DNA of 64,000 nt. It comes from Candidatus Omnitrophota bacterium. Lineage in GTDB: Bacteria > Omnitrophota > Gorgyraeia > Tantalellales > Tantalellaceae. The stretch's first letter is position 1. Every line of letters begins with the position of its first letter. A program made the translations under genes and the position numbers. Shown here one piece after another: positions 36,331 to 36,510 of the stretch. Location: assembly GCA_049643885.1 (NCBI GenBank), contig JBARQV010000020.1, forward strand, positions 10,670 through 74,669, in the 5' to 3' direction. A model generated the notes under the pieces. That model did no database searches and had not been told where the DNA came from. It saw nothing but the letters and a program-made list of their open reading frames with translations.

Positions 36331-36510
36331 CGACTTGGCAAAGAAGACTTGGCAGCAGCTTGGTAAATGACTTGGCAGACTTGGCGAAAAAGACTTGGCG
36401 AACAAAAACTTGGCAAAGAGGCTTGGCGAAAAATATGAAGACTTGGCGAAAAGAAGAAAATAGCTTGGGAAACAATATAAACGCTTGGCAAAAAGAAAGC
36501 ACTCCTGGCA
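36331..36510 (+). repeat. Array of about 12 direct CTTGGC(R)AA motifs with A/G-rich (ARN-like) spacers, in the leader and first ~25 codons of giant gene 3
   Basis: CTTGG(C/T/G) copies begin at 36334, 36348, 36359, 36371, 36380, 36394, 36409, 36422, 36442, 36464, 36484 and 36505, spaced 9-22 bp apart and all in the same orientation. Confidence 0.7.

Follow-up and report, generated by a model that had tools for sequence, protein, structure and literature searches.

In CsrA/RsmA leaders and CsrB-type sponges, several short single-stranded motifs occur at irregular spacing, with one of them at the ribosome-binding region; the repeat number varies among targets, the core is GGA [A(N)GGA] and is usually displayed in a hairpin loop, and a CsrA dimer can bridge sites ~18 nt apart. 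TRAP, an oligomeric reader, recognizes ~9 to 11 same-sense repeats [(G/U)AG triplets 2 to 3 nt apart] in unstructured RNA over the Shine-Dalgarno/start region (e.g., trpG and trpP). Small RNA (sRNA) targets have sites at codons 3 to 5 and near the AUG, a multi-copy arrangement being atypical of them. At the DNA level, direct-repeat arrays (iterons, MetJ metboxes, and omega/ParR ribbon-helix-helix sites) contain many same-orientation repeats near a promoter, have fixed periods (8, 7, 11, and ~22 bp), and are anchored to the promoter or origin. Phase-variable contingency loci carry repeats of varying copy number from the promoter to the start of a costly surface protein gene, and these tracts are perfect and uninterrupted with units of 1 to 9 nt.

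In Omnitrophota, giant genes code for proteins of 9,000 to >100,000 residues, which are among the costliest single gene products in bacteria. We know of no report on the expression control of these genes, and the giant-gene literature examined contained no mention of promoters, leaders, or start-region repeats. The window (the whole stretch of DNA analyzed; 64,000 nt) contained three giant ORFs on the plus strand: 2 to 6910 (partial), 7096 to 35367 (gene 2; 9,423 aa), and gene 3, which started at 36435 and had 9188 stop-free codons up to the window end. The gene 3 product was a giant Omnitrophota membrane protein; the homologs of its N terminus were all fragments of hypothetical proteins, and those with a named source came nearly all from Omnitrophota metagenome-assembled genomes (MAGs). 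Gene 2 was paralogous (N terminus 35% identical) and had the same type of extended -10 (TGTGATATACT at 6969-6979), and no copy of the CTTGGC motif was found upstream of it, as the original prediction had stated. By its sequence, the array at the start of gene 3 is a real, conserved, and previously undescribed cis element of one Omnitrophota giant-gene orthogroup.

The array was composed of 12 same-orientation copies of (R)CTTGGCRAA within 36334-36513 of the plus strand (Table 1), and the minus strand was devoid of any copy. Start-to-start distances were 14, 11, 12, 9, 14, 15, 13, 20, 22, 20, and 21 nt, bearing out the predicted 12 motifs in one orientation at 9- to 22-bp spacing; the predicted extent (36331-36510) held overall, except that the degenerate last copy reached 36513, 3 nt further. 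The CTTGGC core was perfect in 9 of the 12 copies [exceptions: CTTGGT (36359), CTTGGG (36464), and CCTGGC (36505)], although copies were recognized by core match and the conservation of the core is thus partly a matter of ascertainment; the leader copies were densely packed, so decayed copies are unlikely to have been missed. Exact CTTGGCRAA occurred seven times in the array and once elsewhere in the 64 kb (at 50784), while shuffled sequence gave a mean of 1.43 with none of 100 shuffles reaching eight. Within the 64 kb the motif was not scattered at similar density: CTTGG on the plus strand reached 11 per 200 nt in the array versus two or fewer in any other 200-nt stretch, against a background of 0.57 per kb (Poisson P ~1e-18). 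Tandem Repeats Finder recognized only an imperfect repeat (period 14, 4.1 copies, 80% matches, and 8% indels), with 14-nt and 23-nt periodicity in the array. The spacers were purine-rich on the sense strand (66% purine versus 59% in the ORF). Three of the four copies inside the ORF (+29, +49, and +69) fell in two different reading frames, and the -13 copy occupied the spacer between Shine-Dalgarno and ATG.

Table 1. Features around the start of gene 3 (window positions; copy positions with a sign are relative to the ATG)
Feature	Position	Strand	Details
Terminator-like hairpin	35430-35456		between genes 2 and 3, with 23S_rRNA_IVP gene
23S_rRNA_IVP (PF05635) gene	35567-35929	-	120 aa, four-helix bundle; between genes 2 and 3
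Promoter-like site P1	36069-36098	+	sigma-70-type, extended -10
UP-like A/T-rich element	36214-36233	+	TGTTAAGGTATAAAATAGGT; directly upstream of P2 -35
Promoter-like site P2	36246-36274	+	TTGACT, 17-nt spacer, TATCAT, extended -10 TGTGGTATCAT
Leader hairpin	36288-36322	+	GACGATAAA ... TTTATCGTC; near predicted 5' end of leader
Array copy starts	36334, 36348, 36359, 36371, 36380, 36394, 36409, 36422, 36442, 36464, 36484, 36505	+	
Leader copies (n=8)	36334-36430	+	CTTGG(C/T)RAA; -101, -87, -76, -64, -55, -41, -26, -13
Shine-Dalgarno-like GAGG	36418-36421	+	immediately 5' of -13 copy; read from sequence
ATG start codon, giant gene 3	36435-36437	+	ORF runs to 64000 and beyond
+7 copy	36442-36450	+	ACT TGG CGA AAA, codons 3-6; most widely conserved copy
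Three later ORF copies	36464-36513	+	+29 (AGC TTG GGA), +49 (GCT TGG CAA), +69 (degenerate CCTGGCAAT)

The sequence comparison was applied to the DNA of 13 homologous gene starts (L001 to L004, L124 to L128, and L257 to L260; ~40 to 61% protein identity to gene 3). CTTGG/CCTGG began at nt +7 of the ORF (ATG-NNN-NCT-TGG-C) in 12 of the 13 homologous loci; the copy of L125 was at +13, and L004 had none. A second copy lay between Shine-Dalgarno and ATG in five loci: the window (-13), L124 and L001 (-12), L003 (-11), and L125 (-14). The -12/-13 and +7 copies were 18 to 20 nt apart in four loci, and the corresponding distance was 27 nt in L125. Copy totals were 12 in the window, 10 in L124, 7 in L001, 4 in L125, 3 in L003, 2 in each of L126 and L259, and 1 in L127/L128, L257, L258, L260, and L002. 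L124 was the closest relative (61% protein identity to the window), and the window and L124 shared positional counterparts at -13/-12, +7, +29/+26, and +49/+46, while their distal leader copies differed in number and spacing; L001 had a counterpart of the in-ORF copies at +40. Across the orthologs, the spacing was irregular and different, the cores being intact and densely packed, and the motif varied most often at position 6 (C to U) and position 7 (A/G). The conserved promoter preceded all of the array copies, and each of them was in sense orientation. The distance from the extended -10 to the ATG ranged from 52 to 161 nt across loci, and the motif nonetheless stayed at +7. Conservation across orthologs, the lack of which would have counted against a functional array, was found at the nucleotide level in homologous Omnitrophota giant-gene loci. 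No conserved neighboring regulator or RNA-binding-protein gene was found among the loci examined, their upstream neighbors varying by locus (another giant gene, an efflux pump, a PilZ protein, or a 23S_rRNA_IVP gene).

Two further observations were made in these loci. L125 contained, at 55-125, a paralogous giant-gene start with four copies of the variant CTTGGGG(T/A)AAA, while L003 from the same MAG (GCA_024542975.1) bore canonical CTTGGCAAAAA; the copies were thus uniform within a locus and different between loci. A reverse-complement motif was present ~190 nt upstream of the ATG in L002 (105-125; TTCGCCAAGG) and L126 (2795-2815; GCGCCAAGC), located within a terminator-like hairpin upstream of the promoter in L126 and just after one in L002; these reverse-complement copies are probably due to chance.

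Codon choice indicates that the constraint acts on nucleotides and not on amino acids. The Ala codon before TGG was GCT in 11 of 12 cases, while GCT accounted for 13% of the Ala codons in these genes (binomial P 2.5e-9, for loci that are phylogenetically related and not independent). The window ORF copies were spelled ACT-TGG-CGA and GCT-TGG-CAA, with codons that are rare for their residues: ACT for Thr (13%), CGA for Arg (1.1%), and CAA for Gln (15%). The residue after Trp was variable (Q/R/L/G), its first base being constantly C; the resulting prediction that the Leu of the homolog P0028 would be CTN rather than TTR was matched by CTG in L260. The copies were spread over all three frames, two of these being used inside the ORF. 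The ORF frame was closed by a stop 6 to 21 nt upstream of the ATG in L003, L125, and L259, so the leader copies there are non-coding, save the ATG-proximal one. The internal control D-W-R/Q, located before a transmembrane segment, displayed synonymous variation (GAT/GAC; AGA/CGC/CAG), as expected for protein-level conservation.

As a separate observation, the N terminus MNAWQS was echoed ~35 to 65 residues further on by (I)MDWQS-x-RNK before the membrane segment (P0021, corresponding to L127 1472-1600; P0039; and P0043), which suggests that an older start region was duplicated to give the N-terminal extension. Variation in (I)MDWQS-x-RNK was synonymous, as would be the case under protein-level conservation.

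The sequence upstream of the array displayed the layout of a conserved promoter region. P2 scored 10 of 12 consensus matches with TG present; P1 was preceded by a similar A/T-rich element (AGTTATAAAATAGTTAG, ~36041-36057). A UP-like A/T block, TTGAC(T/A), the extended -10, and GATAAAAAAGG as the opening bases of the leader recurred in the homolog loci. An extended -10 of the form T[AG]TG[AG]TATnnT was present in 10 of 11 homolog loci; L124 and L001 had conserved the UP-like element in the form TTAAGGTATAAAATAGTT, and L127 and L260 in the form AAGATATAAAAAAGTT. The A/T-rich block would act as a UP element, and the consensus promoter would place the transcription start, and hence the array within the transcript. 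P1 and P2, both of the sigma-70 type, were arranged in tandem ~175 nt apart (36041-36098 and 36214-36274), each behind a similar A/T block (G)TATAAAATAGTT; this promoter doublet was also seen in L124 (1-60 and 175-235), while most homologs had a single promoter plus A/T block.

The leader hairpin had a minimum free energy (MFE) of -9.7 kcal/mol (z -4.72; 0 of 200 shuffles equally stable), and both L124 and L001 had retained its stem and loop sequence AAAAAGGCAG, apart from one G-C pair that had become G-U. This hairpin is probably a 5' stabilizer that would protect a long message against 5'-initiated decay; alternatively, it may be a protein-binding hairpin for a very long mRNA.

Since the ATG, the Shine-Dalgarno, and the flanking copies were conserved, with the GAGG/AGGA plus motif layout recurring in L124, L001, and L003, the start codon at 36435 was supported over another start, a choice that the original prediction had left open. 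A 23-codon upstream ORF (uORF; MTWQTWRKRLGEQKLGKEAWRKI) was located inside the array at 36367-36438, and its TGA overlapped the main ATG (ATGA), as is typical of translationally coupled genes; as a mechanism, this uORF was dropped because it was not conserved in L001 or L124.

RNA folding of the array against shuffles was performed for three loci (z +2.68, +0.78, and -0.15) and revealed no excess structure. RNAfold drew an inter-copy pairing (UUG-G-CAA against itself), which was rejected since it requires an A after GGC and lacks conservation. Searching Rfam with E up to 5 gave four weak matches (E 2 to 4, far below gathering scores), none of them on the array. The motif is real, conserved at the nucleotide level, confined to the sense strand, anchored to the ATG, and without RNA structure of its own.

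The reading that we tentatively prefer is that the array is an operator on the mRNA, in which a putative factor would bind several single-stranded sites on both sides of the start codon. The original prediction had offered either a DNA operator or an mRNA platform. Several results favor the mRNA/translation side: (i) the motif is fixed to the ATG while the promoter distance varies, and (ii) the spacing is irregular and differs between orthologs, as would be expected of a flexible single strand more than of duplex sites in phase. The confinement of the copies to the sense strand behind the promoter, the purine-rich spacers, the array RNA being no more structured than shuffles, and the position of the two most conserved copies on either side of the AUG point the same way, and the lack of the motif at the paralogous gene 2 is also in its favor. 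An action as RNA, binding by a protein, and the direction of the effect are inferences. The proposed cis element of the gene 3 mRNA would be unstructured purine-rich RNA with many CUUGGC(R)AA(A) copies, forming a multivalent platform to which a factor specific for this sequence in single-stranded RNA would bind; the factor would most likely be a protein acting as a dimer or oligomer. Its conserved core would consist of two copies: -13 (in the Shine-Dalgarno/AUG spacer) and +7 (codons 3 to 5). As both of these lie within the 30S footprint, a bound factor would bracket the AUG and gate initiation, repression being likelier than activation. The additional leader and early-ORF copies may have been amplified by local duplication in the window/L124/L001 lineage and would raise avidity or cooperativity, giving tight, switch-like control of a >27-kb message. 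A factor shared by all loci would need to tolerate C, T, or G at motif position 6; for the four identical CTTGGGG variants of L125, local duplication is a simpler explanation than a shared factor.

The conserved promoter type, the conserved 5' hairpin, and the start-bracketing motif amplified up to 12-fold provide a sequence-defined handle on giant-gene control. If the array is a translational operator, it would represent a new motif and imply an RNA-binding regulator in an uncultured phylum, and the motif would also mark true start codons and orthologous giant-gene groups in fragmented assemblies.

Judged by analogy, such an mRNA operator is functionally like CsrA and TRAP sites while being a member of neither family. 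Like CsrA/RsmA targets, the array has several short, irregularly spaced, single-stranded motifs with one at the ribosome-binding region, its copy number varies across loci, and its -12 and +7 copies are 18 to 20 nt apart in four loci, within the reach of a CsrA dimer; the copies at -13 (beside GAGG) and +7 also correspond to the overlap of CsrA sites with the start region, a positional resemblance only. Unlike CsrA sites, the array has a CUUGGC core and no hairpin presentation; 36283-36530 contained two GGA and no A.GGA, and no csrA gene was seen nearby. The likeness to TRAP sites lies in the number of same-sense repeats and in their position in unstructured RNA over the Shine-Dalgarno/start region, whereas the array has a core of 6 to 9 nt and spacers of 0 to 13 nt, and its leader contained four scattered G/UAG triplets.

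The array makes a poor candidate for the Hfq-type platform also proposed in the original prediction. Its A/G-rich, ARN-like spacers were indeed purine-rich, but there was just one (ARN)4 run (36449-36460) with a few (ARN)3; most spacers were 0 to 9 nt long, short for an Hfq distal-face site of at least three to four A-R-N triplets in a row, and such a site would leave the conserved CTTGGC unexplained.

Somewhat unlikely is a DNA operator, in which a DNA-binding regulator on the direct repeats downstream of the promoter would roadblock or modulate giant-gene transcription. Promoter-adjacent direct-repeat arrays are a classic operator layout, exemplified by MetJ metboxes, omega heptads, and the Spo0A 0A boxes downstream of the abrB start, and the array begins ~55 to 60 nt past the -10 of P2, a strong conserved promoter. 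However, the conserved copy keeps its +7 position relative to the ATG over the whole range of promoter-ATG distances, the 9- to 22-bp spacing follows no helical phase and varies from ortholog to ortholog, single-copy loci have their site 60 to 130 nt into the transcribed region and within the ORF, and a duplex site would offer no evident reason for spacers rich in purines on the sense strand. The array shares with the described DNA arrays many same-orientation repeats near a promoter, and it differs from them in being irregular and anchored to the start codon. The label iteron-like, given to it in the original prediction, has to be given up: iterons are repeats of 17 to 22 bp with a regular period of ~22 bp and lie beside a rep gene, an AT-rich region, and DnaA boxes, whereas the array has a core of 6 to 9 nt at irregular distances of 9 to 22 nt and lacks a replication context, its flanks comprising giant genes and the 23S_rRNA_IVP gene with no replication/partition gene. 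The sigma-54 promoter pattern TGGCAC-N5-TTGCW (GG-N10-GC) had no match in 36283-36530, and the RfaH ops/JUMPStart antitermination sequence GGCGGTAGnnTG, expected on the non-template strand of the leader, was matched best at one position only (36351), with two mismatches; the repeated motif gave no match to it.

It is unlikely that initiation is controlled by RNA-RNA pairing, in which each copy would be a seed match to UUYGCCAAG in a trans-acting RNA (an sRNA or an abundant RNA, e.g., rRNA or SRP RNA). The +7 copy lies inside the 'five-codon window', in which sRNA pairing reportedly blocks 30S binding, an observation attributed to Bouvier et al. in 2008, and the site at codons 3 to 5 and the one near the AUG resemble those of sRNA targets. 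The most frequent variants, those at positions 6 and 7, would keep pairing through G-U wobble, but transitions are the commonest substitutions anyway, and the CTTGGG and CTTGGGG variants break the wobble logic. Moreover, no complementary cluster was found in the window or any homologous locus compared, and it would be unusual for one sRNA to have twelve sites on the same mRNA.

Another account, which we regard as quite unlikely, is that only the start-proximal copies are functional and the others are a by-product of slippage or local duplication in an A-rich low-complexity leader. The copy number of 1 to 12 among relatives, the single copy in most homologs, and the 14-nt and 23-nt periodicity are in line with it, and the L125 array, being one homogeneous variant, points to local amplification. 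Against it, the eight leader copies of the window are packed without decayed copies in between; the spacers are diverse in length and sequence around intact cores, with the caveat that copies were found by their cores; the positions -12/-13, +7, +26/29, and +46/49 are shared by the window and L124 despite 61% protein identity; and the in-ORF copies are held by rare codons in two frames. The array resembles contingency loci in having repeats of varying copy number from the promoter to the start of a costly gene, but it is imperfect with heterogeneous spacers and thus makes a poor slippage substrate.

The two remaining readings are highly improbable. In the first, the array would be a multivalent sensor or sponge for the NCCA ends of uncharged tRNA, seated on the start codon, since each copy has UGG and then a base that varies (C, U, or G, with G throughout in L125), and UGGN is what pairs with the tRNA NCCA 3' end in T-box RNAs, the ribosomal P loop, and RNase P. 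If true, a protein of >9,000 residues would be initiated only under adequate amino-acid supply. T-box RNAs display UGGN in the bulge of a structured antiterminator and also have a specifier loop; in the array, UGG plus a variable base was present in every copy, but there was neither conserved structure nor an Rfam T-box match, and the invariant CU before UGG and the missing scaffold structure are left unexplained. In the second, the array would be plain coding sequence, owing to a start further upstream or to conservation of the N-terminal peptide M-x-A/T-W-Q/R-K; although the gene 3 frame is open back to 36309, 11 of 49 homologs start with M-x-A/T-W (P0007 with a longer spacer), and the same peptide is internal in P0001 and P0016, which gene callers extended through their arrays, this account was rejected in view of frames, stop codons, and codon usage, because the copies occupy three frames that are all similarly open in the window, L124, and L001 (the upstream openness being a base-composition effect), the frame closes shortly upstream of the ATG in L003, L125, and L259, so that the alternative of a real start upstream, raised in the original prediction, fails, and rare codons spell a motif whose nucleotides are invariant where the amino acid is variable, unlike the synonymously varying D-W-R/Q control.

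Other carriers of the array were sought in several collections. In a scan of genome contigs with CTTGGCRAA-N(2-24)-CTTGGCRAA-N(2-24)-CTTGGC, the matches listed were almost all unrelated, perfectly periodic tandem repeats from many phyla, and the sole Omnitrophota match among those listed (L011) contained a different 17-nt repeat. In a scan of metagenome contigs with a stricter RAAA version, the matches listed were almost only unrelated tandem repeats and low-GC satellites. Viral contigs yielded nothing relevant (general pattern, ATG-context pattern, and protein search), and a literature search for the motif strings returned primer sequences only. Neither a trans-acting factor nor a regulon emerged from the loci compared and the matches listed.

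Some additional features were observed in the course of this comparison. The 23S_rRNA_IVP protein encoded between genes 2 and 3 was related to the Avd proteins of diversity-generating retroelements, and its gene was divergent between the two giant genes; no reverse transcriptase was seen within the window, and the 23S_rRNA_IVP gene did not adjoin the homologous giant genes in other loci. At ~11749-12170, gene 2 had a low-complexity stretch in which nine AEADR(R/K/Q)AAEAK units preceded three EARR(E/D)AED units. The tandem repeat of ~17 nt (GCCTTGGCGAAGGCGGAA), unrelated to the CTTGGC array, was present in L011, L046, L047, L096, L104, and L109, with similar units in L026, L087, L088, and L093; it occurred in contigs of Omnitrophota, Myxococcales, and Verrucomicrobiota, related longer units were found in, e.g., Paceibacteria, and the repeat was located at the contig end in several loci.
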